From assembly GCA_964448355.1 (NCBI GenBank), contig CAYUWC010000002.1:1995-65994 (forward strand): a DNA stretch of 64,000 nucleotides. Reading direction: 5' to 3'. The stretch is from an uncultured Oscillospiraceae bacterium (GTDB lineage: Bacteria > Bacillota > Clostridia > Oscillospirales > UBA644). The position numbers and the translations under genes are program-made. This document shows positions 25,194 to 55,111 of the stretch, one piece after another. The notes beneath the pieces are model-generated. The model did not search any database and was not told where the DNA came from. It worked only from the letters and a program-made list of their open reading frames with translations. Numbering within the stretch: position 1 is the first letter of the stretch; every line of letters starts with the position of its first letter.

Positions 25194-26300
25194 ATGATAA
25201 CGGTTTCCGGCTTAACGAAGCGATACGGCAGCAAGATAGCGGTCAACAATGTCAGCTTCACGATCAATCAAGGCGAGATCGTCGGTCTTCTCGGCCCGAA
25301 CGGTGCGGGAAAGACAACGACGATGAACATGATAACGGGATACATATCTTCTCACGCGGGTAAAGTATCCATAAACGGGCACGATCTTCTTGAAGAACCG
25401 TCAAAAGCAAAGGAGTGCTTCGGATATCTTCCGGAGATCCCCCCTCTTTACCATGATATGACGGTTCGGGAATATCTCAGTTTTGTTTACAATCTTAAGG
25501 GTTGCAGCAAAAAAGAGAATATAAAGAAGAAAAAGGAGCATATCGCCGAGGTTTGCGAAGTTGTTAAGATCACGGGCGTATATAACAGGCTGATAAAAAA
25601 CCTTTCAAAAGGTTACAAACAGCGTGTCGGCCTTGCACAGGCGCTTATCGGGGACCCTCCGATCCTTATTCTCGACGAGCCTACCGCCGGTCTTGACCCC
25701 AAGGAGATCGTTGAGATACGAAATCTTATAAAACGTCTCGGAACGAGGCGAACGATAATCCTGTCCTCGCACATTCTTTCGGAGGTACAGGCTGTTTGCG
25801 AGCGTATAATAATAATGAACGAAGGCTTTGTCGTTATGGACGCGCTTGCCGATGATCTTACGATGCGTATGGGTGCAAACAGCAGATACGGCGTTCGTCT
25901 TGCGGCTCCGGAGGACGCGGATGTTATCGGGGTTCTCGGCTCTCTGCCCGGAATCGCAAAGATCGAATATATCGGCTCGTTTGAGCAGGGCACGTTCGAT
26001 TTTATAATCGAAGCCGAGAAGAAAACGGATATCCGCCGTATACTTTTCGACGAATGCGCAAAGAGAAACTGGTATATTTTGATGATAACACCTCTCGGTA
26101 TGTCGCTTGAAGACATCTTCCTGCAGCTTGTTTCTCAAAATGACGAGCAAAGGGCGCTTGCCGACAAAAAAGACGACAAGAAAAAGAAGAAAGATACAGA
26201 TAAAGAGGATATGACGGAAGCTCAAACAGAGCAAACCGATCCCGAAAACAATGATACGGAAGAACAAAAGGAGGAAGCAAACGATGACGGCAATAATTAA
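25194..26300 (+). CDS. ABC transporter ATP-binding protein (GldA-like, ABC-2 subfamily) with an acidic/lysine-rich C-terminal tail
   Basis: Walker A GPNGAGKTT, signature LSKGYKQRV and Walker B ILILDEPTAGLD are present. The last ~60 aa are low-complexity K/D/E-rich. Confidence 0.9.
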   Translation: MITVSGLTKRYGSKIAVNNVSFTINQGEIVGLLGPNGAGKTTTMNMITGYISSHAGKVSINGHDLLEEPSKAKECFGYLPEIPPLYHDMTVREYLSFVYNLKGCSKKENIKKKKEHIAEVCEVVKITGVYNRLIKNLSKGYKQRVGLAQALIGDPPILILDEPTAGLDPKEIVEIRNLIKRLGTRRTIILSSHILSEVQAVCERIIIMNEGFVVMDALADDLTMRMGANSRYGVRLAAPEDADVIGVLGSLPGIAKIEYIGSFEQGTFDFIIEAEKKTDIRRILFDECAKRNWYILMITPLGMSLEDIFLQLVSQNDEQRALADKKDDKKKKKDTDKEDMTEAQTEQTDPENNDTEEQKEEANDDGNN

Positions 26301-26988
26301 ACGAGAGCTTATCTCATTTTTCAAAAACCCGATCGGTTGGTTTGTTCTTGCGATATATTCTTTCCTTTCGGCGATACTGTTCACTCTTTTTGTTATTTGG
26401 CAAAACACGAGCTATCTCGGAGACTACTTCGGGTTCTGGCTGTTTTTTGTTGACATGGTAGTTGTCGGCATACTTTCGATGCGCTTTTTCAGCGAAGAAA
26501 AGAAAAACAAGACCGACCAATTGTTGTTAACATCGCCGATAAATCTTTATCAGCTCGTTTTGGGTAAATTTTTCGGCGCACTTATAATCTTTTTGATCTG
26601 CACGTCCGTAAACTTGTTTTACGTGCTTGTCGTAGACATTTTCGGAACGGTCGATTACGGTTGTCTTGCGACGAATCTTATCGGCACGGTACTTGCGCTT
26701 TGTGCGATAATCTCGATAGGTCTTTTCGTTTCCGCACTGACGGAGAGCGCCGTTGCGGCTGCGGCAGGTACGATGGCGATACTGTTTTTCATGTTCGTTG
26801 TCGACTTTTTCGCAATGTTCTTCCCGACGTGGCTTGCAAATATTTTAATGTACACAAATATTTATGCGCAATTCGATGATTTTACAAACGGTATTCTTAA
26901 TCTGCCCCCGATCGTTTATTATATCTCCGTAACGGTAATATTCTTGTTCCTTACGGTAAGAATGATAGAAAAACGCCGTTGGAACTAA
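26284..26988 (+). CDS. ABC-2-type transporter permease (GldF-like)
   Basis: MTAIIKRELISFFKNPIGWFVLAIY is the typical N-terminus, and the protein has about six TM helices. I prefer the ATG at 26284; the track ORF starts at 26251. Confidence 0.75.
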   Translation: MTAIIKRELISFFKNPIGWFVLAIYSFLSAILFTLFVIWQNTSYLGDYFGFWLFFVDMVVVGILSMRFFSEEKKNKTDQLLLTSPINLYQLVLGKFFGALIIFLICTSVNLFYVLVVDIFGTVDYGCLATNLIGTVLALCAIISIGLFVSALTESAVAAAAGTMAILFFMFVVDFFAMFFPTWLANILMYTNIYAQFDDFTNGILNLPPIVYYISVTVIFLFLTVRMIEKRRWN

Positions 26989-27001
26989 GGAGGTGCAAGA
27001 G

Positions 27002-28711
27002 ATGTCTAACGAAAATATTAACGAAAACGTAAATGCCGAAGCAAACGAGAGCATTAACGAAAACTCAACCGTTGAATCAAACGAACACATTGACGAAACC
27101 GTAACCGTTCAAGCGGAAGAAGTAACGAAAGTCGAACAGCCCGAGCAAGGTCCTGTCGCCGCTCTCGGCGGAAACGTATCGGATCAAAAAATACCGAGGA
27201 TAAACAAAAACAAGCTTAAATTCGGTTCTCTTGCGACCGTTTATACGATTCTTTTTATCGCGATTGTCATTGCGGTAAACGTTGTTATAAATCTTGCGGC
27301 GGACAGATTTACGTTAAAAGTGGACCTGACGTCCGAGCAGGTGTTCACTCTCGATCAGGAAACGCTCGATTTTCTTGCCGAGCTTGATTCGCCTGTTGAA
27401 ATAATCATTCTCGGCGATGAGCAAACGTATCGCTCCGCTACTTCAACATCGGGCGCTATTGCGCCGACGAGGTATGTTGTTGAAACGGTCGATAATTATA
27501 TAAGAGAGAGCGAAAATGTGACGGTACACTTTGTTGACCCGAGATATAATCCCAACTTTTTCAAGACGAGAAACATCACTCTCGACGACGGTACGGACAC
27601 GGCGGACAACATTTTTCTTGTTGTTTACTCGCCCGAAACGCAGAGATATCGTTTTATAAAAGACACTATATTCGACAATCTTATGTATGTCGGTCTCGAA
27701 AGACGTCTGACAGCGGGAATGTTGTACGTTACGGTCGAAGATATCCAAACGATAGCGATCGTAAAAGGTCACGGTGAGGAAACGTTGCCGTACTTCCAGG
27801 AAACGCTCAAAGACAACGGTTTTGATGTTAAATACATCACGATCCAGGAATTTGACGAGATCCCGGACTTTGTTTCGATCCTCGTTATCAACAATCCGAC
27901 AAGATCGTACAGCGACGACGATATCAACAAGATCGACGCATGGCTGTCAAACGACGAAGAGCTTGGGCACCATCTGATGGTCTTTGCAGATCTTGATATG
28001 CCGAAGAATCAAAAGCTTGAGGATTATCTTGCGGAGTGGGGGCTGTCGCTCGGTACGGAAAACGTATTCGACTACAACAACAGCTATGCCTTTACGAACG
28101 CATCGTATCCGCTTTTGAAAGTTACGTATGCCGATGATGCGACAACGCTTGCGGAAGATCTTGCGCGTGAGGGTTATTATCAGTTTGTTCAGCTCGGCAC
28201 GGCAAGAGCCGTCAACCGTCTTTACGAAAGCAAAGACAATCGAACGACATACAGCGTAATCGAAACTTTCGATACCGCATTTTCAAGATATACGGCGTCC
28301 ACAACGCTTGCTCCCTCCGATTGGAAAAACTTCAAAAAAGAAGATACCGACACTGTAGGTCCGTTCGATCTGAGTGCGATCTCCCGTCAGGTGCGCTACG
28401 AGGGAATGACGGAATTTTCGTCGAGCGTGTACCTTTGCGGCTCGACATCTTTTGTTGACGATTATTTTATCAGCAATATTGACGGTAACAACCAACAAAC
28501 TGCGGAATTTATGATAAAGCTGTCTAAATTCCTTGTTGCATCAAAACAATCTTACGATACGAATATTTTGCCCACGCAGCTGATCTTCGACACACTTGCG
28601 TTTACGACAACGACGGAATTTATAATTGTTGTATTCTGCCTTTTGATCGGCATTCCCGCGCTCTTGGCGATAACGGGTATAGTAGTGTGGAGAAAGCGTA
28701 AATTCTTATGA
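27002..28711 (+). CDS. GldG-like ABC-transporter auxiliary protein (large extracytoplasmic domain between N- and C-terminal TM helices)
   Basis: Its position after the GldA/GldF-like pair, an N-terminal TM (LATVYTILFIAIVIAVNVV) and a C-terminal TM (IIVVFCLLIGIPALLAITGIVVW) support the call. AAGGAGG lies 8 nt upstream of the ATG at 27002. Confidence 0.6.
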   Translation: MSNENINENVNAEANESINENSTVESNEHIDETVTVQAEEVTKVEQPEQGPVAALGGNVSDQKIPRINKNKLKFGSLATVYTILFIAIVIAVNVVINLAADRFTLKVDLTSEQVFTLDQETLDFLAELDSPVEIIILGDEQTYRSATSTSGAIAPTRYVVETVDNYIRESENVTVHFVDPRYNPNFFKTRNITLDDGTDTADNIFLVVYSPETQRYRFIKDTIFDNLMYVGLERRLTAGMLYVTVEDIQTIAIVKGHGEETLPYFQETLKDNGFDVKYITIQEFDEIPDFVSILVINNPTRSYSDDDINKIDAWLSNDEELGHHLMVFADLDMPKNQKLEDYLAEWGLSLGTENVFDYNNSYAFTNASYPLLKVTYADDATTLAEDLAREGYYQFVQLGTARAVNRLYESKDNRTTYSVIETFDTAFSRYTASTTLAPSDWKNFKKEDTDTVGPFDLSAISRQVRYEGMTEFSSSVYLCGSTSFVDDYFISNIDGNNQQTAEFMIKLSKFLVASKQSYDTNILPTQLIFDTLAFTTTTEFIIVVFCLLIGIPALLAITGIVVWRKRKFL

Positions 28712-30213
28712 CGAAAAAAAGGATCATCGGTATCGTTATCGCAATTGCGATCATCGGTCTGCTTATCGGCGCTGTGTTTTTCATGTTAACGTTCGACACT
28801 CTTCCCGAAGAAGAGGAGCCGTCCTCGGACCTGTCGATAGAATATGCGCGTCAAAGCTTGGTGCTGTACTCCTGCGTTATCGAAGATTTAAAGGCTATAC
28901 ACGTTAAAAATCCGACCGGCGAATATACCGTCAGCAAAGATGAAGACGGAAACATCAACTTCCTCGGCAGAGAGGGTGCACCGCTGTTGCCGTATTCGTC
29001 GGAGGGCCTTTATTCAAGCGTTGCGAAAGTAACGTGTGAAGCGTTGATCGAAGCGGAGACCGAGCATCTTGAGTATTATGGGCTTGACGAGCCGCAGGTC
29101 GTTATACAAATAGAGATGAAAGACGGAACCGTTACGGAGCTGCAGATAGGCGACGCCGCACCTAAGGGCGGCGGCTATTATATAAGAAACGCTTCCAACA
29201 CGGACGTATTTCTTGCGCAGACGTATTTCTCGGAACGTTTTCTGAAGAATCACGTACAGTATTATCAAACATCCATAAGCAAAGAGTTTGATTATACGGG
29301 ATTTGAATCCCTTTCGATCGAATATTCCGAAGCTTCCGGAAAAGACGATATATATATAAGGAAGACAACCGACGAAGAAGCGACCGATCTGAACTATTCC
29401 GGCGGTATGGTAATGGAAAAACCGTTCCATTGGGGCGGAGATTCAACGCCGATACAGGGTATCGTCGAGATCCTCGCAAGTCTTGAAGCGGACGATATAA
29501 TTACCGACACGCTCGACGAAGAGCTCCAAGCGCAGTACGGTTTTGACGATCCGACAAGAGTTGTTATAGAAGCGTGGGTAGACACGCAAAACTACGTAAG
29601 TCAGCTGACAAGTCTCGAAAACCCGTACTACGGTGCAACGGAGGACGGCTCTGATTTGTTGATACAAAGCGAATATCTTCTCGGTAACATAGACGGAAGA
29701 ACGCTTTATGTTATGTACGACGGCGAGCCTGTTATATACGGCGTTGATATCGACAATTTCGCGTTTGTCGATTACGGTGTCGATACGTACTGTCAAAGAA
29801 TAATCAATCTGAGAAACATCAATGATCTGAACGGTATTATTGTTGAACTTAACGGCGAAACATATTCGTTCTCGATCGAAAATCCCGATGCGGGCGACGA
29901 TATGGTCGTTATGTGGGACGGAACGACGAAGATCGATCCGGATCTGTTCAGAAGTTTCTACGTTTCCATTATCAGTGTTACGCACGACGGGCTTGCGTAC
30001 GAACCGGAGGAGGGGCTTGAACCCGATCTGAAAATAACGTACAAGGCTATCGACGGAACGGATACGGTGCTTGAATTTATACCGATAGAATCGAGAAAAA
30101 GTGTCCTTAAAGTTAACGGCGAGGGTAGATTCTTCGTGTATGTAAATAAAGAAAACAAAATAAAAAATGATCTGACAAAGCTTATAAACGGCGAAGAGAT
30201 CAAAAACTACTGA
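28708..30213 (+). CDS. DUF4340-like single-pass membrane protein associated with GldG-type ABC systems
   Basis: 501 aa with an N-terminal TM and a large extracytoplasmic region. The call rests on the recurrent four-gene neighbourhood and has not been verified by HMM. Confidence 0.5.
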   Translation: MTKKRIIGIVIAIAIIGLLIGAVFFMLTFDTLPEEEEPSSDLSIEYARQSLVLYSCVIEDLKAIHVKNPTGEYTVSKDEDGNINFLGREGAPLLPYSSEGLYSSVAKVTCEALIEAETEHLEYYGLDEPQVVIQIEMKDGTVTELQIGDAAPKGGGYYIRNASNTDVFLAQTYFSERFLKNHVQYYQTSISKEFDYTGFESLSIEYSEASGKDDIYIRKTTDEEATDLNYSGGMVMEKPFHWGGDSTPIQGIVEILASLEADDIITDTLDEELQAQYGFDDPTRVVIEAWVDTQNYVSQLTSLENPYYGATEDGSDLLIQSEYLLGNIDGRTLYVMYDGEPVIYGVDIDNFAFVDYGVDTYCQRIINLRNINDLNGIIVELNGETYSFSIENPDAGDDMVVMWDGTTKIDPDLFRSFYVSIISVTHDGLAYEPEEGLEPDLKITYKAIDGTDTVLEFIPIESRKSVLKVNGEGRFFVYVNKENKIKNDLTKLINGEEIKNY

Positions 30214-30241: not shown

Positions 30242-31999
30242 ATGAAAATCGAGAATATTGACGAAATGAAGGTTTTTTGGCATACCTCATCTCACATTCT
30301 TGCACAGGCAGTCAAACGTCTGTATCCGAATGTTAAACTCACGATCGGTCCGGCGATAGAAAACGGTTTCTATTACGATTTTGACAGCGATGTTTCGTTC
30401 ACTCCGGAGATCCTCATAAAGATCGAAGCGGAGATGAAAAAGATCGTTAAAGAAAATCTCAAGGTCGAACGCTTTGTTCTTCCGCGTGAAGAAGCTCTCG
30501 AACTTATGAAGGACGAACCGTATAAGATCGAGCTTATCAACGAGCTTCCCGAAGACGAAGAAATAAGCTTTTACAAGCAGGGTGAATTTGTCGATCTTTG
30601 CGCAGGCCCGCACTTGCCGTACGCAAGTAAGGTTAAGGCTTTTAAGTTAACAAGCTGCACCGGTGCGTACTGGAGAGGCGATTCCAACAAGAAAATGCTT
30701 CAAAGAATATACGGAATATCTTTCCCCAACGCAACGCTGCTCGACCAGTATCTTACAGACGTTGAAGAGGCTAAAAAGAGGGATCATAACAAGCTCGGCA
30801 GAGAGCTTGAGCTGTTCACGACGTGCGATCTTATCGGTCAAGGTCTTCCCATACTTTTGCCCAAAGGCGCAAGGATAATCCAAACGCTTCAGCGTTTTGT
30901 CGAAGACGAAGAGCAAAAACGCGGTTGGCTTTTAACAAAGACCCCCTACATGGCAAAAAGCGATCTTTACAAGCTTTCCGGCCACTGGGATCATTATCAG
31001 GACGGTATGTTTGTTCTCGGCGACGAAACAAAGGACGACGAAGTCTTTGCTCTCCGCCCGATGACCTGCCCGTTCCAATATCAGGCATATCTTAACAGAG
31101 CGCGTTCTTACCGCGATCTTCCGCTTCGTTATAACGAGACTTCCACGTTGTTTAGAAACGAAGCGTCAGGCGAAATGCACGGCCTTATAAGAGTTCGTCA
31201 GTTCACCATTTCCGAAGGTCATCTGATGTGCTTGCCCGAACAGTTGGAAGAGGAGTTTAAAAACTGTCTCGAACTCGCCATTTATATGTTAAAAACACTC
31301 GGTCTTTACGAAGATGTTTCATATCGTTTCTCGCAGTGGGATCCCAACGACAGAGAAAAATACATCGGCACGCCCGAACAGTGGGACGAAGCTCAAAGTG
31401 TTATGCAAAAGATCCTCGATCATCTCGAGATTCCGTACAAGATCGGCATAGGCGAAGCTGCATTCTACGGACCCAAGCTCGATATCCAGATCAGAAACGT
31501 TTTCGGCAAGGAAGATACGCTGATCACTATCCAGATCGACCAAATGCTCGCCGAAAAATTCGGTATGGAATATGTCGATCGTGACGGAACGAAGAAAAAT
31601 CCGTACATCATTCACAGAACTTCTATCGGCTGCTATGAAAGAACGCTCGCTCTCCTTATCGAGAAGTATGCCGGCGCGTTCCCGACTTGGCTCGCGCCCG
31701 TTCAGGTCAAGATCCTCCCGATCGCCGACAGACATCAACCGTATACGTTTGAACTCAAAAAAGAACTCGAAAAATACGGCTTGCGCGTCGAAGTTGACGA
31801 CAGAAGCGAAAAGATAGGCTACAAGATCCGTGAAGCTCAAATGGAAAAAGTTCCTTTCATGCTCGTCGCAGGCGACAAAGAGCAGGAAGAAGGCACAGTC
31901 TCCGTCAGAGCAAGAAAAGAGGGCGACAAAGGCTCCATGCCCGTGTCCGACTTCATCGCACTTATCAAAGAGCATATCGACAATAAGATGATAGACTGA
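30242..31999 (+). CDS. thrS: threonine--tRNA ligase (short form starting in the editing domain)
   Basis: 585 aa. FWHTSSHILAQA marks the editing domain, RPMTCPFQ, FRNEASGEMHGLIRVRQF and the class II core are present, and an anticodon-binding C-terminus follows. No TGS-domain-length N-terminus is present. Confidence 0.93.
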   Translation: MKIENIDEMKVFWHTSSHILAQAVKRLYPNVKLTIGPAIENGFYYDFDSDVSFTPEILIKIEAEMKKIVKENLKVERFVLPREEALELMKDEPYKIELINELPEDEEISFYKQGEFVDLCAGPHLPYASKVKAFKLTSCTGAYWRGDSNKKMLQRIYGISFPNATLLDQYLTDVEEAKKRDHNKLGRELELFTTCDLIGQGLPILLPKGARIIQTLQRFVEDEEQKRGWLLTKTPYMAKSDLYKLSGHWDHYQDGMFVLGDETKDDEVFALRPMTCPFQYQAYLNRARSYRDLPLRYNETSTLFRNEASGEMHGLIRVRQFTISEGHLMCLPEQLEEEFKNCLELAIYMLKTLGLYEDVSYRFSQWDPNDREKYIGTPEQWDEAQSVMQKILDHLEIPYKIGIGEAAFYGPKLDIQIRNVFGKEDTLITIQIDQMLAEKFGMEYVDRDGTKKNPYIIHRTSIGCYERTLALLIEKYAGAFPTWLAPVQVKILPIADRHQPYTFELKKELEKYGLRVEVDDRSEKIGYKIREAQMEKVPFMLVAGDKEQEEGTVSVRARKEGDKGSMPVSDFIALIKEHIDNKMID

Positions 32000-32026
32000 T
32001 AAAATTCATTTTTTTGTTTAACAAAG

Positions 32027-32097
32027 ATCCACAGTACGCAAAGTATACCCCAAAGGCAAACACTTTCGGGAGTATACAACGGCTGTGGATTTTTTTT
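32027..32097 (+). terminator. rho-independent terminator after thrS
   Basis: ATCCACAG (32027-32034) pairs with CTGTGGAT (32083-32090), with further inner pairing (gtatacccc/gggagtatac). Seven T residues follow. Confidence 0.7.
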
Positions 32098-32201
32098 GTC
32101 TTTGTTTTTACAACCGAAAATATCAATGTAATTTAACACCATTTCGTCAAATCTACCAATAACTCGTATTTTAAAAACAGCATTTTTGTTAAACTTGAGT
32201 A

Positions 32202-32230
32202 TTGACTTTTTTTTCACGACATGATATAAT
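32202..32230 (+). promoter_or_regulatory. near-consensus sigma-A promoter of the small-protein/permease cassette
   Basis: TTGACT (32202-32207), then 17 nt, then TATAAT (32225-32230). AAGGAGG lies 8 nt before the S1 ATG. Confidence 0.65.
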
Positions 32231-32260
32231 TAAAATATCAAACATAAGGAGGCATTTTTC

Positions 32261-32629
32261 ATGAAGAAAAATATAATTTTTACAGTGGTCCTTTTGACAT
32301 TGGTCATCTCTGTTTTTGCCGTAACATCGGTTCAGGTGTTGGGCTTAACAGATGCGCTCACCATAACCGTGTATACCAATTCGGGATATATTGCAGATGA
32401 TCCGGATGAAATACCGCTATACTTTGCCGAGACGGAAACATCCGGAGCAATGCCCCCGACAACGCACTATGCATATGCATACATATATAAAGACGGTGTA
32501 CAAGTCGGCTATGATCAAGGGCGTTTAAACGCCACATCTTCGCATGCATATGCGACATATCAACCGGCAATGCCGAATGAGAATTTCACTACAGACCATG
32601 GATATATAGTTTTTAATGAATTACAGTGA
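32261..32629 (+). CDS. small secreted protein S1 (unassigned family; paralog of S2 and S3)
   Basis: 122 aa. It has a Sec-type signal peptide (MKKNIIFTVVLLTLVISVFAVTSVQ), a strong RBS, and shares the C-terminal motif AYATYQPAMPNENFTTDHGY with S2 and S3. Confidence 0.8.
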   Translation: MKKNIIFTVVLLTLVISVFAVTSVQVLGLTDALTITVYTNSGYIADDPDEIPLYFAETETSGAMPPTTHYAYAYIYKDGVQVGYDQGRLNATSSHAYATYQPAMPNENFTTDHGYIVFNELQ

Positions 32630-32639
32630 TTGAAAAATC

Positions 32640-32690
32640 GGAGATAAAGAAGGCAAACCCGTTCGCCTTCTTTATCTCCTGCGTTTTTTT
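32640..32690 (+). terminator. intercistronic rho-independent terminator/attenuator between S1 and P1
   Basis: A perfect 15-bp stem, GGAGATAAAGAAGGC (32640-32654) with GCCTTCTTTATCTCC (32665-32679), has a 10-nt loop and is followed by tgcgTTTTTTT. Confidence 0.75.
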
Positions 32691-32705
32691 AGGGAGAATT
32701 TGCGT

Positions 32706-34229
32706 ATGATCTTTACGGTTTATTTGAGGGAAGCATGGAAAAATATAACGAAAAAACCGTTGCTTTCAACTCTTACAATTTTATTTTTAACGTTTACCGT
32801 CCTTTTTTTCTGTGTTTTTGTTAGAATTTCGGATATAAAAACCATAACGACCGACAATTTCCAAAAATCGGAAGCATATATTCAATATAAGCAATATAAT
32901 CTGACTACCACTATAAAAGGCAATACTATCGGATCGCTTAATGCAACCGATCCCTTTACATATATGTACCCTCCCGATGAAGATGAAGTAGAACTCAGAG
33001 CTAATACTCTTGCATACTTTGATGAATTCAGCGATTTTTTTGACACTCTTTTCACTTTGGATTCCGAAGATATAAAAGTTGTTTACATGGGTTGGGGACA
33101 AACAACACTTATCGAAAACTACAAAGGCGCAAAGGATTTGGAAGAATCCTACAACAAAAAATATCGAAGAGAAGAGATTTCCGATTATAAAAAACAAGGT
33201 ATAGACACCACATTTCTCGAAACTGGCGCTTATGTACACACGATATACGTGGGCAAAAGCTTTTTTGAATATGAAAAGCTTAATTTTGCACAAGGCGGAG
33301 TGCCGACGGAAGAAGATCTCGAATATAAGTTTATTGCGGACGAAGAGACCCCCGTATTGGAAATCCCGGTAATTGTCGGTTCCGCATTTGGCGAAGATTA
33401 TGAAGTCGGTGATATTTTAAGCCCTGTAAATGATCCGTATATGGGTCCCCTTGAATCGCAGTGGAAATATTTTCCTGTAAATTATCGTCAAGAATATTGT
33501 GCCCGATATAGGATAGTCGGTATTTTAAGTGCGGACAACGCCATAAGTAACAGCCTCGGCTCAACTATTTCCGACTTTTCGAAATACATAATTGCTCCTT
33601 ACCATTTTTTAACTGACCCTGCATTTACCGAAAAATATACGGATAATCAAAAGATAGTTCTGTTAGACGACCTGATCAAAGATATAACAAAAGTAAAACT
33701 TTATATAAACAGAGAAAAAGAAGCTGAATGCGTTTCGATTTTATGGGATATGATCGATAATTCTTCTCTTAAAGATTATCTGAAGCCGCACACGTTTGAC
33801 GTTCTTAACGAGATATCGATAACAATCGCGAACGCAAGGGATACTTCTTACAAAGTGCTCGCAATAGCTATCGCGGTATTCTGTTCTATCGGTGTTTTTA
33901 TAATGATATTAAACAATCAAAAAGACAACATCCGAGATTACAGTGTACATATGATATCGGGCGCAAGCAAGGCGGATATACTTTTGACAGGTGTTGTTGA
34001 AACATTGATATATGTGCTGATCGCAGATATATTGATGCAATATCCGAGGATATACATGATGTTCGGCTGGCAACAGAATTCTCCGCTCGGAACATGGATG
34101 GGAATGTGGAGCGGAATGATCCCTATCGTTATAATAGAAAATCTTGTTATTATCCTCATTGCGTTTATTTGTAACTACATTTCGGTTTCGAAGATCAGTT
34201 TTTCCGAAGTTCTGAAAAGAAAGGATTAA
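32706..34229 (+). CDS. FtsX/MacB-type permease P1 (four TM helices, large extracytoplasmic domain); no cognate ATPase adjacent
   Basis: It has an N-terminal LREAWKNITKKPLLSTLTILFLTF TM and a ~340-aa extracytoplasmic region. The C-terminal three-TM block carries HMISGASKADIL, an FtsX-domain-like helix. GGGAG lies 9 nt upstream of the ATG at 32706; the track ORF starts at the TTG at 32700. Confidence 0.75.
   Translation: MIFTVYLREAWKNITKKPLLSTLTILFLTFTVLFFCVFVRISDIKTITTDNFQKSEAYIQYKQYNLTTTIKGNTIGSLNATDPFTYMYPPDEDEVELRANTLAYFDEFSDFFDTLFTLDSEDIKVVYMGWGQTTLIENYKGAKDLEESYNKKYRREEISDYKKQGIDTTFLETGAYVHTIYVGKSFFEYEKLNFAQGGVPTEEDLEYKFIADEETPVLEIPVIVGSAFGEDYEVGDILSPVNDPYMGPLESQWKYFPVNYRQEYCARYRIVGILSADNAISNSLGSTISDFSKYIIAPYHFLTDPAFTEKYTDNQKIVLLDDLIKDITKVKLYINREKEAECVSILWDMIDNSSLKDYLKPHTFDVLNEISITIANARDTSYKVLAIAIAVFCSIGVFIMILNNQKDNIRDYSVHMISGASKADILLTGVVETLIYVLIADILMQYPRIYMMFGWQQNSPLGTWMGMWSGMIPIVIIENLVIILIAFICNYISVSKISFSEVLKRKD
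32728..32818. repeat. 91-bp tract identical to 35291-35381 (5' ends of P1 and P2)
   Basis: Base-by-base comparison by eye found no differences. The offset is 2,563 bp. Confidence 0.85.
33726..34120. repeat. 395-bp tract identical to 36289-36683 (TM2-TM4 region of P1 and P2)
   Basis: Base-by-base comparison by eye found no differences. The track's spurious antisense ORFs 33898-34095 and 36461-36658 have identical translations. The offset is 2,563 bp. Confidence 0.9.
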
Positions 34230-34459
34230 AAGATGAAAGCCCTTTTGTGATTGTCTCCCCCCGAACGTTCATACCTATACCCGCTCTTGTTTTCGTCAAT
34301 TCGACCGATATATAAACAAAAATCGGCGGTTTTGCTGAACATTGGCAGAAGAACTCGTCTAGTTATAACGAAATCGCAAACCAATTTATTCTTTTTCAAG
34401 TAGATTCAACAATCATATCATCACATAATTTCCAATCCAAAAGGAGGTGAAAAATCACA

Positions 34460-34795
34460 ATGAAAAGAAAGATTTACGCATTTGCACTTTTAGCAATCGT
34501 TATCTCCGTCGCAGTAGCTTTTTCTGTTCAATCTTTTGCAGATCTTGCACACCGGGTTATACTTGAGACTTACAATGGATATATTTACACAAGTATACCG
34601 AAATATTACGCAGAAACAAAATCAAATTCATACGGGAACATTGAACACAGAGCTGTTGCAAAGATTTTTTTGGATGATGTACTCGTTGCAACAGATATCG
34701 GAGAAAAAGATTACACATCCTACGCATATGCAACATACCAACCGGCAATGCCCAATGATAATTTTACTACATGGCATAGTTATATTTTAGGATAA
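34460..34795 (+). CDS. small secreted protein S2 (paralog of S1 and S3)
   Basis: 111 aa. It has the signal peptide MKRKIYAFALLAIVISVAVAFSVQSFA, the RBS AAAGGAGGTG, and the motif AYATYQPAMPNDNFTTWHSY. Confidence 0.8.
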   Translation: MKRKIYAFALLAIVISVAVAFSVQSFADLAHRVILETYNGYIYTSIPKYYAETKSNSYGNIEHRAVAKIFLDDVLVATDIGEKDYTSYAYATYQPAMPNDNFTTWHSYILG

Positions 34796-34812
34796 AAAGG
34801 AGAAGATGATTC

Positions 34813-35172
34813 ATGAAAAAAAATATTATTTTTTCAGTATTTCTTTTAACTCTAATCATTTCGATCTTTTCTTGCACTGCGATACAAATGATCGGATGGG
34901 ATGATGATGAACGGATAGTTGTAACTTCAGATTACGGATATCTACCGACAGATATACCATCATATTTCGCCCGAACAACAACAGCCTCAGCTCCTCCCAT
35001 CAAACATTACGCTATTGCGGTTATTTACAAAGGTGACATAACAGAAGTAGTTGCGTCAAATTATGGTCGAACAGGAACTGCTTCTAGTGCATACGCATCA
35101 TGGCAACCGGCAATGCCCGGAGAAGGTTATTTTACCGAACATGGATATAGAATAACCGAAATTCTCGACTAA
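34813..35172 (+). CDS. small secreted protein (possible lipoprotein) S3 (paralog of S1 and S2)
   Basis: 119 aa. Its signal peptide MKKNIIFSVFLLTLIISIFSC is nearly identical to that of S1 but ends in a Cys. The motif is AYASWQPAMPGEGYFTEHGY, and the gene is 17 nt downstream of S2. Confidence 0.8.
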   Translation: MKKNIIFSVFLLTLIISIFSCTAIQMIGWDDDERIVVTSDYGYLPTDIPSYFARTTTASAPPIKHYAIAVIYKGDITEVVASNYGRTGTASSAYASWQPAMPGEGYFTEHGYRITEILD

Positions 35173-35183
35173 GTAAAAGTAAA

Positions 35184-35219
35184 CATAAAGAAGAAGACAA
35201 TCCTGTCTTCTTCTTTATG
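35184..35219 (+). promoter_or_regulatory. intercistronic perfect 16-bp stem-loop between S3 and P2 (no U-tract)
   Basis: CATAAAGAAGAAGACA (35184-35199), loop ATCC, then TGTCTTCTTCTTTATG (35204-35219). It shares the ATAAAGAAG core with the S1-P1 terminator. Confidence 0.6.
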
Positions 35220-35268
35220 GAGAATAACGTTCCGATGCTTTATAATTTAACAGAAGGAGATGTTCCAT

Positions 35269-36792
35269 ATGCTATTTGCGGTCTATTTAAGGGAAGCATG
35301 GAAAAATATAACGAAAAAACCGTTGCTTTCAACTCTTACAATTTTATTTTTAACGTTTACCGTCCTTTTTTTCTGTGTTTTCGCAAGGATATCTACGATC
35401 AAAACTATAACCGAAGACAATCTTCAAAAATCGGAAGCATATATTCAATATAAGCAATATAGTTTTAATACAGATACAAAGGGAGTTGGAGTTGGAAGTT
35501 ATAATTCTACCGACGATAAGTTTACATATTTGTACCCTCCCGATGAAGATGAAGTAGAAATCAGAACTGAAGCTCTCGGCTACTTTGACGAACTAAGTGA
35601 TTTTTTCGATACAATTTTCACCTTGGATTCCGAAGATATAAAAGTCGTTTATATGAGTGGCGAATGGACGACTCTTATCGTCAATTCAAAAGGTGCAAAG
35701 AATTTGGAAGAAACTTACAACAAGAATTTTCGAAAAGAAGATATCTCAGAATATAAAAAACAAGGTATAGACACCACATTCCTTGAAACCGGCGCTTATG
35801 TGAAAACTATATTCGTAAGCCAAAGCTTTTTTGACCACGAAAAGCTTAATTTTGCAAAAGGCGGGGTTCCGACAGAAGAAGATCTTAATTATAAATTTAT
35901 CTCGGACGAAGAAACCCCTGTAATTGAAATACCGGTAATTGTCGGTTCCGCATTTGCCGAAGATTATGAGGTCGGGGATATTATAGAACGTGCATATGAG
36001 CCTTATGAATCTCCTGAAACAGATTGGCAAAGATACTCGAGCGATTACCATCAGCAGATGTTTTGCAAATACAGGATAGTCGGTATTTTAAGTGAAGACA
36101 ATGCCATAACCAACTGTTACGGCTCAAGTATTTCAAACCTATCGAAGAATATAATCGTTCCTTACCATTTTTTAACCGACCCTGCATTTACCGAAAAATA
36201 TACGGATAATCAAAAGATAGTTAGAGTAGACGATCTATTCTGGGAAATAACGCAAGTAAAACTTTATATAAACAGAGAAAAAGAAGCGGAATGCGTTTCG
36301 ATTTTATGGGATATGATCGATAATTCTTCTCTTAAAGATTATCTGAAGCCGCACACGTTTGACGTTCTTAACGAGATATCGATAACAATCGCGAACGCAA
36401 GGGATACTTCTTACAAAGTGCTCGCAATAGCTATCGCGGTATTCTGTTCTATCGGTGTTTTTATAATGATATTAAACAATCAAAAAGACAACATCCGAGA
36501 TTACAGTGTACATATGATATCGGGCGCAAGCAAGGCGGATATACTTTTGACAGGTGTTGTTGAAACATTGATATATGTGCTGATCGCAGATATATTGATG
36601 CAATATCCGAGGATATACATGATGTTCGGCTGGCAACAGAATTCTCCGCTCGGAACATGGATGGGAATGTGGAGCGGAATGATTCCGATCGTTATAGCTG
36701 AAAACCTCATTATAATTTTAATAGCGTTCATTTGCAATTACATTTCGGTTTCAAAAATCAGTTTTTCCGAAGTTTTAAAGAGGAAGGATTAA
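35269..36792 (+). CDS. FtsX/MacB-type permease P2 (paralog of P1)
   Basis: It has the same length and layout as P1, with identical N-terminal TM and TM2-TM4 segments and a diverged extracytoplasmic domain. AAGGAG lies 9-10 nt upstream of the ATG at 35269; the track ORF starts at 35260. Confidence 0.75.
   Translation: MLFAVYLREAWKNITKKPLLSTLTILFLTFTVLFFCVFARISTIKTITEDNLQKSEAYIQYKQYSFNTDTKGVGVGSYNSTDDKFTYLYPPDEDEVEIRTEALGYFDELSDFFDTIFTLDSEDIKVVYMSGEWTTLIVNSKGAKNLEETYNKNFRKEDISEYKKQGIDTTFLETGAYVKTIFVSQSFFDHEKLNFAKGGVPTEEDLNYKFISDEETPVIEIPVIVGSAFAEDYEVGDIIERAYEPYESPETDWQRYSSDYHQQMFCKYRIVGILSEDNAITNCYGSSISNLSKNIIVPYHFLTDPAFTEKYTDNQKIVRVDDLFWEITQVKLYINREKEAECVSILWDMIDNSSLKDYLKPHTFDVLNEISITIANARDTSYKVLAIAIAVFCSIGVFIMILNNQKDNIRDYSVHMISGASKADILLTGVVETLIYVLIADILMQYPRIYMMFGWQQNSPLGTWMGMWSGMIPIVIAENLIIILIAFICNYISVSKISFSEVLKRKD
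35291..35381. repeat. 91-bp tract identical to 32728-32818
   Basis: See the partner entry at 32728-32818. Confidence 0.85.
36289..36683. repeat. 395-bp tract identical to 33726-34120
   Basis: See the partner entry at 33726-34120. Confidence 0.9.
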
Positions 36793-36795
36793 GCG

Positions 36796-37950
36796 ATGAA
36801 GAAGTATTTAAATTTCACAAATTTTTTAATCGTATTAAGTATTGCGATAATGACGGTATTTCTTATCGTTATTGTCAATCAGGAATTGATAAACAGCAGA
36901 AACGAGCGTGAGTTCAACAACTTTTACGGCGGAAACAGCCGAAGAATAAGTATCGATTCCGACGCAAGAAAATTTTCTTTTGACGTAACGGGGCTTTCGG
37001 AGAATTACGTTATATACGGATTGTTAAGCAATTCGAGTGAAAAGAACTATTTGGCGGATTCCGTAAGGACTGTTTACGGCGAAGGTAATTTCCCGATACC
37101 GACAATAAAGGCAGGCAGATTTTTTACTGCTGAAGAGCTTTTGTCGGAAGAGGCGTTATGTGTTGTGGGCCAAACGACGTTCAATCGTTCTGCGTATACA
37201 AAAGACGAGGCTGCGCCGACGGAAGCCGTTGCAACAGATAGCGAGACGGAATATATCGAAGACGAAGAGATCGAAGAAAAGGTTTTTGACGAAACAAAAG
37301 AATATTACTATTTGCACAGCGGTATCGAGTACAAGATCATCGGTGTGTTCGGAATGAACAAAACGAGTGATATCGACACGATAACAATGCTCAATTTTGG
37401 CGGATACATTGCAAGCAAGGGTTCGTCGTACAAATTGACGTATCATATTGATTCGTTTAACACCGAAGAGATCGACACTGTATTTACGGCACTCGGCGAA
37501 AGGGTAGTTGAGGCCGAAGGAGAGTGGAGAGAGATATTGTATTCGTCGCCGTTAAAGTCGATCGACGTATATTACACGTATATTTATCTGCTCGGCTGTA
37601 TAATATTGATACTTAATCTTTTGATAGTATCGTTCAGATATGCGGCGAAGAACGAATATCGTATGTGCATCAAAAAGATGCTCGGCGTGACGTCTTTCCG
37701 CTTGGCTGCGGAGACTTGCGGCTCGTTTGCGTGCATATCTTTTATAGGCATGGGCATAGGAATATGGATCTTTTCGATGTTATCGAAAACGCAATTTTTC
37801 GAAAGCAGCGGCCTTGATTATTTTGCCGGTTTGACGTGGCAGACGATACTGTTTACGGCTGTGATCGTTTATGCGGTATCGCTTTCGATATCCGTTTTCC
37901 CGCTCATTCGTATATACAAATTAGATACAAGTGCTCAAATACGAGGATAG
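36796..37950 (+). CDS. FtsX/MacB-type permease P3 (shorter and divergent)
   Basis: 384 aa with an N-terminal TM. Its extracytoplasmic domain has MacB-like strings IKAGRFFTAEELLSEEALCVVGQ and YKIIGVFG, plus an acidic insert. The C-terminal three-TM block carries KKMLGVTSFRL. It starts 4 nt after the P2 stop. Confidence 0.7.
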   Translation: MKKYLNFTNFLIVLSIAIMTVFLIVIVNQELINSRNEREFNNFYGGNSRRISIDSDARKFSFDVTGLSENYVIYGLLSNSSEKNYLADSVRTVYGEGNFPIPTIKAGRFFTAEELLSEEALCVVGQTTFNRSAYTKDEAAPTEAVATDSETEYIEDEEIEEKVFDETKEYYYLHSGIEYKIIGVFGMNKTSDIDTITMLNFGGYIASKGSSYKLTYHIDSFNTEEIDTVFTALGERVVEAEGEWREILYSSPLKSIDVYYTYIYLLGCIILILNLLIVSFRYAAKNEYRMCIKKMLGVTSFRLAAETCGSFACISFIGMGIGIWIFSMLSKTQFFESSGLDYFAGLTWQTILFTAVIVYAVSLSISVFPLIRIYKLDTSAQIRG

Positions 37951-38004
37951 AAAAATCGCTTTTTTGTTAAAAACGCCGAAAAAGCCGGTGTAAAAAAAAT
38001 TTGC

Positions 38005-38033
38005 TTGCAAAATAAAAAAGAATAGTATATAAT
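38005..38033 (+). promoter_or_regulatory. candidate sigma-A promoter of the fucosidase gene
   Basis: TTGCAA (38005-38010), then 17 nt, then TATAAT (38028-38033). Confidence 0.5.
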
Positions 38034-38076
38034 AATGTTAAAACATACCATAAAGCGATAAGGAGCTTATTTGATT

Positions 38077-39360
38077 ATGATGCAGGAATGGTTTAAAGAG
38101 GCGAAACTCGGCATATTCATTCATTACGGAATATACAGCTGCGGCAATTGGTCGGAATCGTGGTCTTTCCACAACGGTCATGTTCCGTACGACAGATACA
38201 TGGCACAGTGCAACGAATTTACGGCAAGCAAATACGATCCCGAAAAGTGGGCTGAGCTGTTCAAAAAAGCAGGCGCGAACTATGTTGTTATGACAACAAA
38301 GCATCACGACGGTGTTGCGTTGTTCGACACAAAATACAGCGATTTGAGTGTTGTTAAAAAAACGCCGGCAGGCCGCGACCTTGTAGCACCGTATGTTAAA
38401 GCGGTAAGAGATGCGGGAATGCACGTCGGACTTTACTACTCGCTCATCGATTGGTCGGACTTACGTTACAGAAGCGTATATCCCGACGGACAAAGTCCCG
38501 AAAACTACAATAAAAACGACATATACGGCTGCCCGATGGGTGGACCGGAAGATCCCGAAAAGTGGGAAGAATTTCTCAAGTTTAACGACGATCAGATGCG
38601 TGAGATCCTCACAAATTACGGAACTGTCGATCTTATCTGGTTCGACGGAGACTGGGAGCGTTCCGCAAAGCAGTGGAGAGCAGACAAAGTACGCGAATTT
38701 TTGCACAACATCAACCCGAACATTGTTATAAATTCGAGATTGCAGGGTTACGGCGACTATGACACACCCGAACAGGGTGCGCCGATCATTGCGCCGACAC
38801 GTCCGTGGGAATTCTGCACGACCATCAACGACAGCTGGGGCTACAGAAAGTTCGATAACGATTACAAGACATCGAGAATGGTCATAAGAATGTTCTGCGA
38901 TTGTTTAACAATGGGCGGAAACATGCTTTTGGACGTAGGCCCGAAAGAAGACGGAACGATCGATCCGCGCCAAGAGCAGATACTTCTCGATCTCGGCTCG
39001 TGGATCAGCGACAACAAAGAAGCTGTTTACGGTACCGAAAGAGGTATAAACTACAGATATTTCCTCGGCGGAAGCACTGTTTCCAAAGATAAGAAGAATC
39101 TTTATCTTATTTGTTACGACAAGCCCGATGAGCATATTTGTCTTAAGGGATTGTTAAGCCCCGTAAAGCGTGTATCCGTTCTTCACTCGAACGAGACGCT
39201 TCAATACCGTTACACGGGCATGGGCTTTAACAACGGAACGCTTTGGATCAACATCGCAAAAGATCAGCTGCACCGTTACGCAACGGTCATCAAGATCGAG
39301 CTTGAAGAGGAGCTTAAGCTCAGCGGAAGCGCCGGTCAGGTCGTAACCAACAACGACTAA
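38077..39360 (+). CDS. alpha-L-fucosidase (GH29 family)
   Basis: WFKEAKLGIFIHYGIYS, TTKHHDGVALFDT, LIWFDGDWE and a C-terminal beta domain are present. AGGAG lies upstream. The start is ATG at 38077 or TTG at 38071. Confidence 0.85.
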   Translation: MMQEWFKEAKLGIFIHYGIYSCGNWSESWSFHNGHVPYDRYMAQCNEFTASKYDPEKWAELFKKAGANYVVMTTKHHDGVALFDTKYSDLSVVKKTPAGRDLVAPYVKAVRDAGMHVGLYYSLIDWSDLRYRSVYPDGQSPENYNKNDIYGCPMGGPEDPEKWEEFLKFNDDQMREILTNYGTVDLIWFDGDWERSAKQWRADKVREFLHNINPNIVINSRLQGYGDYDTPEQGAPIIAPTRPWEFCTTINDSWGYRKFDNDYKTSRMVIRMFCDCLTMGGNMLLDVGPKEDGTIDPRQEQILLDLGSWISDNKEAVYGTERGINYRYFLGGSTVSKDKKNLYLICYDKPDEHICLKGLLSPVKRVSVLHSNETLQYRYTGMGFNNGTLWINIAKDQLHRYATVIKIELEEELKLSGSAGQVVTNND

Positions 39361-48629: not shown

Positions 48630-48736
48630 AGGCGGGTCCTGCGTGACTTTGCGTGCGAACCATGTCAGGCGGGGAACCGAGCAGCATTAAGCACATACAA
48701 AGGGCACAGCAGGGAACCCGTCTTTTTATTTTTTTT
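48630..48736 (+). ncRNA. ffs: signal recognition particle RNA, small (4.5S-like) type, including its terminator U-tract
   Basis: GUCAGGCGGGGAACCGAGCAGC matches the conserved domain IV motif (cf. E. coli GUCAGGUCCGGAAGGAAGCAGC) and has a GGAA tetraloop. The 5' GGCGGGUCCUGCGUG pairs with the 3' CACAGCAGGGAACCCGUC. A T-run lies at 48723-48736. The gene sits directly upstream of dnaX, as in many Firmicutes. Confidence 0.8.
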
Positions 48737-54901: not shown

Positions 54902-55111
54902 TGTTTTGTCACCTCCCAATGTAACTTATGCCTTTAGGTCTCCTGAATAAATATAAAAAGAAAGCTCTTTCAAAACAGCACTGTCTTGAAAGAGCGAAAT
55001 AATTCCGTAAATAATGTTATCTTAAGAAATTAAATCTCTTCCTCGACAGGCGTACATTAAGACGGTAAACCGTCGCCTGTTGTCTCAGGAAACGCAACAC
55101 TCATTTATGAG
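54902..55111 (-). ncRNA. probable ribosomal protein L10 (rplJ) leader / autoregulatory 5' UTR
   Basis: It is a ~200-nt structured untranslated region between a perfect promoter and rplJ. It contains stem-loops such as CTCTTTCAAgacagtgctgttTTGAAAGAG and ACAGGCGacggtttaccgtcttaatgtaCGCCTGT on the coding strand. I have not verified it against a covariance model. Confidence 0.5.

Follow-up and report, generated by a model that had tools for sequence, protein, structure and literature searches.

Lactococcin 972 is a Sec-dependent, unmodified bacteriocin with a beta-sandwich fold, and its gene precedes genes with a presumed role in immunity and transport (PMC11796350; PMC4055356). The respective operon of pBL1 consists of lcn972, a gene for a TIGR01654 'bacteriocin-associated integral membrane protein' and a gene for a TIGR03608 ATPase. 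The other described systems against which the locus analyzed here can be compared are the type VII ATP-binding cassette (ABC) permeases, such as MacB, FtsX, LolC/LolE and HrtB; to our knowledge, small immunoglobulin (Ig)-like secreted proteins are not a known class of type VII partners. The locus lies in a stretch of 64,000 nucleotides (nt) from an uncultured Oscillospiraceae bacterium (GCA_964448355.1, contig CAYUWC010000002.1, positions 1,995-65,994, forward strand; hereafter, the window), where three small genes, S1, S2 and S3, are not stand-alone but are the lead genes of a conserved cassette that also encodes the FtsX/MacB-like membrane proteins P509, P510 and F384, a context missed in an earlier note that described the three small proteins from the DNA letters. 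The S family is new and without a name, its partners tie it to a wider cassette family that also lacks a name, and the operating principle resembles that of the lactococcin 972 kind. The reading that we prefer, tentatively and with slightly less than even confidence, is that S1-S3 are bacteriocin-like proteins exported by the Sec route and that their FtsX-like neighbors are the cognate immunity or export proteins.

The cassette comprises two adjoining units led by small genes (Table 1), namely S1, a hairpin and P509, followed by S2, S3, a second hairpin, P510 and F384. The island is located between thrS and an alpha-L-fucosidase gene and has a G+C content of 0.37, compared to ~0.47 in the flanks. 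An AGGAG-type ribosome-binding site precedes each of the three small genes, and the predicted promoter ahead of S1 is the best match (11/12) within positions 31900-38200. The two hairpins have folding energies of -27.7 and -27.4 kcal/mol, with z values of -4.0 and -4.9, respectively (RNA fold), and the first one is predicted to be a terminator-like attenuator between S1 and P509. A promoter and hairpins arranged in this way are usual where a structural gene precedes the genes for its machinery. In a hydropathy scan, P509, P510 and F384 each show four transmembrane (TM) helices and a large ectodomain between TM1 and TM2 (in P509, helices 23-41, 384-402, 425-443 and 471-489, with an extracytoplasmic domain of ~340 amino acids (aa)). 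This topology is shared with the type VII permeases, and the presence of two different permease genes side by side is shared with LolC/LolE. The differences are that the Pfam scores of the P and F proteins are under the gathering thresholds (F384, FtsX 24.8 bits with a cut-off of 25.5 and MacB_PCD 18.8 bits with a cut-off of 27, E 0.002; P509 and P510, FtsX 17.5 bits, P509 E 0.004), that there is no adjacent cognate ATPase, and that the island encodes no membrane-fusion, LolA-like or hydrolase partner. In direct searches, P and F turned out to be no less orphan than the S proteins, and the AlphaFold2 model of P510 is of low confidence (pLDDT, the predicted local distance difference test, 30.7).

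Table 1. Features of the cassette, in coordinates of the window
Feature	Position	Strand	Size	Description
Promoter	32202-32230	+		Predicted sigma-70-type, TTGACT-17-TATAAT with TG extension; consensus match 30 nt upstream of S1
S1	32261-32629	+	122 aa	Type B paralog; signal peptide of ~22-28 aa and acidic Tyr/Thr-rich all-beta domain (predicted)
Hairpin	32640-32690	+	15-bp stem	Between S1 and P509, followed by TGCG-T7; stem by predicted fold (18 pairs in pattern scan)
P509	32706-34229	+	507 aa	From ATG; alternative TTG at 32700; four-TM FtsX/MacB-like
Identical tract	33726-34120 (P509) = 36289-36683 (P510)	+	395 nt	100% nucleotide identity; TM2-TM4 region
S2	34460-34795	+	111 aa	Type A paralog; predicted cleavage ...SFA↓D or ...AFS↓V
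S3	34813-35172	+	119 aa	Type B paralog; begins 17 nt past the S2 stop
Hairpin	35184-35219	+	16-bp stem	Between S3 and P510; no U tract on the + strand
P510	35269-36792	+	507 aa	From ATG at 35269; alternative ATG at 35260; P509 paralog, 83% identical
F384	36796-37950	+	384 aa	Second, shorter FtsX/MacB_PCD-like four-TM protein

S1, S2 and S3 are collinear in a MAFFT alignment with 34 invariant columns and pairwise identities of 38-54%, and their mature parts match each other in BLASTP with E 3e-18 (S2/S3, 39% identity; S1/S2, 54% identity), so the likeness among them is not due to chance. The blocks that the earlier note had described are all present, namely the N-terminal block (GYIADDPDEIPLYFAET in S1, GYIYTSIPKYYAET in S2 and GYLPTDIPSYFART in S3), the middle block (HYAYAYIY, HRAVAKIF and HYAIAVIY) and the C-terminal block AYA(T/S)(Y/W)QPAMP; the one correction concerns the spacing downstream of PAMP, which had been given as (F/Y)..T.H and is off by one residue, the actual arrangement being x3-(F/Y)-x-T-x-H-(G/S)-Y. 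A search of 5.8 billion clusters (word-indexed) with the mature-domain profile retrieved six proteins, S1-S3 and three from metagenome assemblies (P0004-P0006), and the same three real clusters emerged when 1.84 billion representatives at 50% identity were scanned in full with HMMER. Two additional HMMER matches, P0007 and P0008, are long repetitive proteins matched by several short stretches and were discarded as compositional. The six-sequence alignment retains G-Y, I-P-x-Y-x-A-x-T, H-x-A, S-x-A-Y, P-A-M-P and T-x-H-x-Y as invariant positions and tolerates the replacement of Q before PAMP by S and of Y/W by T or H, which indicates that the conserved blocks are kept in homologs and are not just a feature of recent duplicates. 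Two subtypes can be distinguished: type A, with the sequence ...SFA↓D-x-x-H-R-V-I-L-E-T (the arrow denotes the predicted cleavage site), consists of S2 and its orthologs P0004 and P0006 (59-70% identical to S2), and type B consists of S1, S3 and the S3 ortholog P0005 (56% identical to S3), with G-W-D-D-D-E in S3 and P0005.

Neither S1-S3 nor their homologs have a match in Pfam, NCBIfam, PADLOC or PHROGs, the search of PDB sequences gave no useful match for the S, P or F proteins, and nothing was found in the genome, metagenome and viral collections that were scanned with the S, P and F profiles. A DUF3139 (PF11337) hit was rejected because it involves S2 alone, 1 of the 6 members, with E 0.073 and 14.1 bits compared to the cut-off of 27.3. 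Together with the Foldseek comparison described below and the scan of 1.84 billion representatives, these searches uphold the earlier view that the signature belongs to no described family, and on this evidence the S family is new, without a name, nearly orphan and almost unique to one lineage.

The S proteins start with MKK, followed by a hydrophobic run from residue 5 to ~19-23 (~15-19 aa) and by a candidate signal peptidase I site past residue 22/23 in all six proteins, with small residues at positions -3/-1 in 6/6 (V-T-S↓V, A-F-S↓V, C-T-A↓I and L-S-S↓I, as read by eye from the alignment); the type A proteins have a further candidate site, S-F-A↓D, also read by eye. The predicted mature parts are 84-100 aa long, Cys-free and rich in Tyr (10-13%), with an isoelectric point (pI) of 4.1-5.1. 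The AlphaFold2 model built from the six-sequence alignment (pLDDT 78.7) consists of a helix (residues 3-27), a disordered linker and seven beta strands. Given this all-beta domain and the Tyr content, S1-S3 indeed appear to be a real family of small exported, Tyr/Thr-rich, beta-rich proteins. The count of Cys residues given earlier, none in S1 and S2 and one in S3 (residue 21), is correct. The suggestion that S3 may be lipid-anchored is not supported: lipidation is unlikely because Cys21 is not conserved in the ortholog P0005, where it is replaced by Leu (FSCT in S3 vs FSLS in P0005), and because the context I-F-S-C has Phe at -2 and does not contain the lipobox L-[AS]-[GA]-C; furthermore, the candidate signal peptidase I sites are common to all six proteins.

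The wider family to which the cassette is tied was reached through the membrane proteins. A tblastn search of 72,556 plasmids with P510 gave a single weak match, a 'permease' of Bacillus mycoides (25% identity over 70% of the query, E 3e-3), which is encoded in a locus comprising a lipoprotein, a 138-aa signal-peptide protein, a 344-aa FtsX/MacB_PCD permease, a 424-aa permease and an ABC ATPase. With the B. mycoides proteins as queries, a cassette family was found on plasmids of Firmicutes, in the order small signal-peptide protein (114-150 aa), F-type permease (~312-354 aa), P-type permease (~398-428 aa) and MacB/LolD-like ABC ATPase. The carriers include B. mycoides SIN3.2 and B. mycoides KBAB4 pBWB401, Bacillus sp. 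PM8313, Paenibacillus polymyxa M1 pPPM1a, Sarcina JB2 p6 (11.3 kb), Vagococcus fluvialis p25B2_p1 (11 kb) and Clostridium gasigenes pCGAS001_A (10.8 kb); on the last three plasmids (10.8-11.3 kb), the four-gene cassette is the main cargo. On the plasmids of Clostridium septicum (5.3 kb; L091 3819-4484) and Terrisporobacter (5.6 kb; L092 4855-5412), a reduced set of a small protein (106-111 aa), a P-type permease and VanZ, with no F-type permease and no ATPase, is essentially the sole cargo besides replication and mobilization genes. Searches of the literature on FtsX together with lactococcin 972 and on related terms found no description of this cassette. In B. mycoides, the 122-aa lipoprotein gene (L089 3738-4106; LLSGC lipobox) is located immediately upstream of the gene for the small secreted protein, and its product may be a further immunity component.

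Comparison of the P family of the window with nine plasmid P-type permeases in hhalign gave a probability of 99.0% (E 8.6e-18, 419 columns), and the F384 family aligned with the 344-aa F-type permease of B. mycoides with a probability of 95% (E 3.5e-8, 203 columns), so that, by profile comparison, the case for homology of the P and F proteins to the permeases of the plasmid cassette is solid. P509 and P510 are full-length homologs of the P-type proteins and F384 is a homolog of the F-type proteins; in both settings, the gene for a small exported Tyr/Ser/Thr-rich protein leads the operon, and versions of the cassette that lack the ATPase exist. The differences are that P precedes F in the window whereas F precedes P on the plasmids, that the island has no ATPase, that the P ectodomain is ~80 aa longer in the window, that the location is chromosomal, and that the window contains two or three small genes and a duplicated unit of a small gene and P. 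Against TIGR03608, 'putative bacteriocin export ABC transporter', the plasmid ATPases score 219-228 bits (cut-off 255), and this model ranks first (Sarcina) or second (B. mycoides); one plasmid P-type protein touches TIGR01654 at E 7.5e-4, far under the cut-off.

A natural deletion within the plasmid family bears on the role of the small protein. Two plasmids of the same strain, Sarcina JB2 p1 and p6, carry the cassette; on p1 (L099 2191-2325), ~335 nt of the small gene are deleted compared to p6 (L090 2601-3005), leaving a remnant of ~45 aa, whereas the F, P and ATPase genes are intact and 95-98% identical to those of p6. Therefore, the membrane genes can be kept when the small protein is lost, a situation like that of immunity-only loci. 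The plasmid small proteins, which have clear cleavable AXA signal peptides, diverge far faster than the P proteins.

The S proteins and the plasmid small proteins hold equivalent positions in their cassettes. They may also be homologous, which we tentatively consider likely. The plasmid small proteins (alignment A7) share the motifs GGWSE, HYTRAR, DSGRxxG and A-x-TYYG and have no match in Pfam, NCBIfam or PDB. When the two groups were compared with hhalign, a probability of 27.8% and a score of 25.6 over 48 columns were obtained, with H-Y-x-x-A and D-x-G-R in register, and the same register was found with a single sequence; none of 400 column shuffles (200 + 200; maxima 18.5 and 23.2) reached this score. 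In addition, G-W-(S/D)-(E/D)-(E/D) occurs at the mature start in both groups. In searches with hidden Markov models (HMMs) against decoy open reading frames from six-frame translation, the model of the plasmid small proteins placed S1 at rank 1 of 8,735 (E 1.7), and the S model placed the B. mycoides small protein at rank 1 of 8,742. Altogether, 7 of the 10 test proteins were within the top 129, a range in which lactococcin 972 ranks 50th, so shared composition may inflate these ranks. A resemblance between the C. gasigenes small protein and S that had been seen by eye was rejected, as hhalign aligned the signal peptide only.

Compared directly with lactococcin 972, the cassette is alike in that a gene for a small Sec-type beta-rich protein (predicted, in the case of S) comes first and membrane genes next, in the size of the precursor (~90-100 aa) and in the Tyr/His/Ser/Thr-rich composition; it differs in the length of the mature protein (84-100 aa in S vs 66 aa) and in the absence of an ATPase from the island. 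The Lcn972 sequence was verified against PDB 2LGN before these comparisons. The lactococcin 972 models (PF09683 and TIGR01653) did not match S at E<=10 in Pfam and E<=1 in NCBIfam, 2LGN was not found at E<=10 in the PDB profile search with S, and it is outside the top 50 Foldseek hits. In hhalign, the S profile (A4) aligned with Lcn972/2LGN with a probability of 0.5% and the family of plasmid small proteins with <1%; the P family of the window (A5) aligned with pBL1 orf2 with a probability of 0.2%, the plasmid P family is likewise unrelated to orf2, and none of P509, P510 and F384 matches TIGR01654. Thus, membership in the lactococcin 972 family was rejected by model searches and hhalign for S, for the plasmid small proteins and for the membrane partner, and therefore only the operating principle is comparable. 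The earlier statement that the signature resembles no described bacteriocin is accordingly right with regard to sequence and incomplete with regard to genomic logic, the cassette being tied to a plasmid family with bacteriocin-like hallmarks.

The cassette is conserved in related genomes. Six metagenomic contigs (L001-L006) show the order type A (112 aa), type B (115 aa), P (502 aa) and F (366 aa); on L004 and L005, the cassette is directly downstream of a thrS gene that is 94% identical to thrS of the window, and on L002 a hairpin (z -5.9) occupies the same place, between the last small gene and P. Judged by SecA (88%), the nearest species-representative genome is a Clostridia metagenome-assembled genome (MAG) from water-deer colon. 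Its contig L009 starts within an F384 ortholog (positions 1-142), of which the last 47 aa are covered with 87% identity, and the fucosidase gene comes next. With the thrS side seen in the window and on L004/L005 and the junction of F384 and fucosidase on L009, at least three related genomes share the location of the island. The genes past F on L001 differ from those of the window, so F marks the downstream boundary of the cassette; these genes (L001 3393-5454) encode a 300-aa multi-TM protein without a Pfam match and, in place of the fucosidase of the window, a protein cut by the contig end (382 aa seen) with weak DUF4320 and alpha-amylase matches. No ATPase was found at the L001 locus, as in the island.

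Several minor features of these contigs deserve mention. The type A small gene of L004 (1265-1604) contains undetermined bases (XXXX in translation) and appears frame-split, which is probably an assembly artifact rather than a pseudogene. The contigs of the closest species-representative MAGs by SecA, L009 and L010, end ~5.3-5.5 kb upstream of secA, and on L010 the fucosidase gene and F384 are both absent. The island seems to be a place where assemblies break, perhaps because of the duplicated permease segment.

The nonsynonymous rate (dN) between the related loci is 0.31-0.34 for S, 0.32 for P and 0.20 for F, compared to 0.045 for the adjacent thrS; the synonymous rate (dS) is saturated for S. 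The dN/dS ratio is ~0.18 for S2 and its ortholog; it lies at ~0.09-0.27 in the majority of gene pairs and reaches 0.44-0.50 when the two S types are compared, and the S motifs are kept between genomes for which the dS of thrS is 1.1. From these values, the S genes are judged to be under purifying selection; positive selection was not demonstrable, dS being saturated and dN/dS below 1 where measurable. The AT-rich composition of the island, the dN of the module (0.2-0.34) compared to that of thrS and the divergence of the two units suggest toxin/immunity-like evolution.

The two units of the window are an older duplication with an unequal history. S1 and S3 share ~51% amino acid identity and 50-60% nucleotide identity. 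P509 and P510 are far closer overall, with 52-86% identity per 50-residue block in the ectodomain, and the flanks of the 395-nt identical tract (the ectodomain and the 3' end) are 59-90% identical. A perfectly identical tract amid diverged flanks points to recent gene conversion inside the older duplication. The variable parts, that is, the small protein and the P ectodomain, presumably carry the pair-specific function, in which case the homogenized membrane part would work with a partner common to both units, namely F384 or an ATPase from elsewhere in the genome.

In the scenario that we tentatively favor, S1, S2 and S3 would be expressed abundantly from a chromosomal bacteriocin-like cassette and exported via Sec. 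Upon removal of the signal peptide, an acidic Tyr/Thr-rich beta-sandwich protein of ~90-100 aa would be released; S2 and S3 may act as a pair and S1 may act alone. P509 or P510, together with F384, would protect the producer and perhaps aid the release of the small protein, with the large extracytoplasmic domain of the P and F proteins recognizing the cognate small protein and keeping or pushing it off its membrane and cell-wall target. Antibacterial activity, the immunity role, the contact between S and P and the energy source are inferences. Several lines of evidence speak for a bacteriocin-like product: an exported small protein whose gene has a strong promoter and is set apart from the membrane genes by a hairpin; the conserved order of the cassette; the homology of P and F to the plasmid permeases; a related cassette that is nearly the sole cargo of tiny plasmids; small genes that evolve fast beside slower membrane genes; a tandem duplication followed by divergence of the small genes and of the P ectodomains, with gene conversion in the membrane part of P; the natural loss of the small gene on Sarcina p1, with intact membrane genes; the best or second-best scores of the plasmid ATPases against TIGR03608; the weak, non-random likeness of S to the plasmid small proteins; and the precedent of lactococcin 972. 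With more reserve, as a possible and rather doubtful extension, S1-S3 could found an undescribed class of Sec-exported acidic Cys-free beta-sandwich antibacterials, with immunity provided by ATPase-less FtsX/MacB-like proteins whose rapidly co-diversifying ectodomain recognizes the cognate small protein; they would then make up a toxin/immunity specificity system on the type VII ABC scaffold, as a chromosomal gut-Clostridia branch of the plasmid cassette family.

A number of observations weigh against the bacteriocin-like reading. The S family has no sequence link to lactococcin 972 or its membrane partner, and the link between S and the plasmid small proteins is below database-wide significance (hhalign probability 18-28%, HMM E ~2). 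The mature parts of S are acidic, whereas lactococcin 972 and 6 of the 9 plasmid small proteins are basic. The N-terminal segment of the S proteins is as strongly conserved as the mature part, which would fit a retained membrane anchor. The island encodes no regulator, pheromone or processing gene and no ABC ATPase, the only ABC ATPase in the window (25194-26300) belonging to an ABC-2/GldG-like operon. Finally, the small proteins of the plasmid cassette and of the S family are all annotated as hypothetical.

Several of these observations are accommodated by the main competing interpretation, which we consider less likely, namely that S is an extracytoplasmic partner or binding subunit of a type VII (MacB/FtsX-like) mechanotransmission module, that is, part of a resistance or efflux device and not a weapon. 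The S protein would be anchored by its uncleaved N-terminal helix or free in the wall space. Its role would be either docking on the P ectodomain or the capture of a compound from outside, for instance a metal, a lipid-linked molecule or an antimicrobial peptide. The FtsX/MacB topology and large ectodomain of P and F fit such a role, as does the N-terminus of S, an uncharged stretch of 23-26 residues that forms one predicted helix and is well conserved, with I16, S17 and Q25 invariant. However, a canonical -3/-1 cleavage site is present in all six S proteins, and the clear cleavable AXA signals of the plasmid small proteins, along with their much faster divergence than that of P, also speak against a subunit. 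The invariant H69, H113, Y115 and M104 could form a ligand site, and the acidic pI of S suits the binding of cationic peptides, but S shows no sequence or fold likeness to MacA, LolA, PcsB or EnvC. Binding-protein genes of ABC systems likewise come ahead of a hairpin and membrane genes, VanZ, a resistance-type protein, is encoded beside the small protein and P on two tiny plasmids, and the divergence of S and the P ectodomain between the units fits S-P contact as well as it fits immunity. Sarcina p1, by contrast, keeps F, P and the ATPase without the small gene, so that the small protein is not an obligate subunit.

It appears improbable that S1-S3 are cell-surface structural or adhesive Ig-fold proteins, such as a wall coat or adhesin modules, placed or turned over via their FtsX-like neighbors. 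The Tyr/Thr-rich acidic composition and the strong expression signals would suit this role, and the top Foldseek matches of the S model are Ig-like sandwiches, namely adhesin repeat domains (7ui8, an ester-bond repeat, TM score 0.47-0.50; also 7uc3, 5u6f and 9ifr). Nevertheless, none of the matches in PDB and BFVD reached E<=1e-3 and the fold is generic; the S sequences contain no sortase motif, cell-wall-binding repeat, S-layer homology or pilin signal; and a single domain of ~90 aa and the context of 5-11 kb plasmids are unfit for a structural role. Another entry encountered in the fold searches is 'Formosin D' (9hkj), a name for which the literature yields plant diterpenoids only and nothing on the PDB protein. 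Least of all do we favor decay of the cassette, with the S genes as recent duplicates drifting after the loss of the ATPase, a very improbable scenario that would account for the missing ATPase and the extreme rarity of the family but is at odds with the intactness of all six genes and of the promoter, ribosome-binding sites and hairpins, the low dN/dS of most gene pairs and the retention of motifs over the divergence measured by thrS, the four-gene order in a second genome with an F384 ortholog at the same site in a third, and the maintenance of ATPase-less units of a small gene and P on minimal plasmids.

If the bacteriocin-like reading is true, a new protein family and a whole cassette family would join the short list of Sec-dependent unmodified protein bacteriocins, a function would be assigned to operons of the type 'hypothetical protein + ABC permease' on plasmids of Bacillus, Paenibacillus, Clostridium, Sarcina and Vagococcus, and FtsX/MacB-type proteins could be immunity proteins that bear specificity, possibly without a dedicated ATPase. 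The pairs S1-P509 and S2/S3-P510, with an identical membrane part and diverged ectodomains and small proteins, would then amount to a natural swap experiment for the mapping of specificity. If, instead, S is a subunit of a type VII module, it would represent a new class of extracytoplasmic partners for type VII ABC-like machines.

Outside the island and unrelated to it, the window contains an operon just upstream of thrS (25194-30213); besides an ABC ATPase and an ABC-2 permease, it encodes a GldG-like protein of 572 aa (ABC_transp_aux) and a protein of 501 aa with DUF4340. An Rfam scan detected no family within the island; elsewhere in the window, matches at the gathering level are a ribosomal protein L10 leader (54949-55107, - strand) and a bacterial small SRP RNA (48630-48726, + strand).

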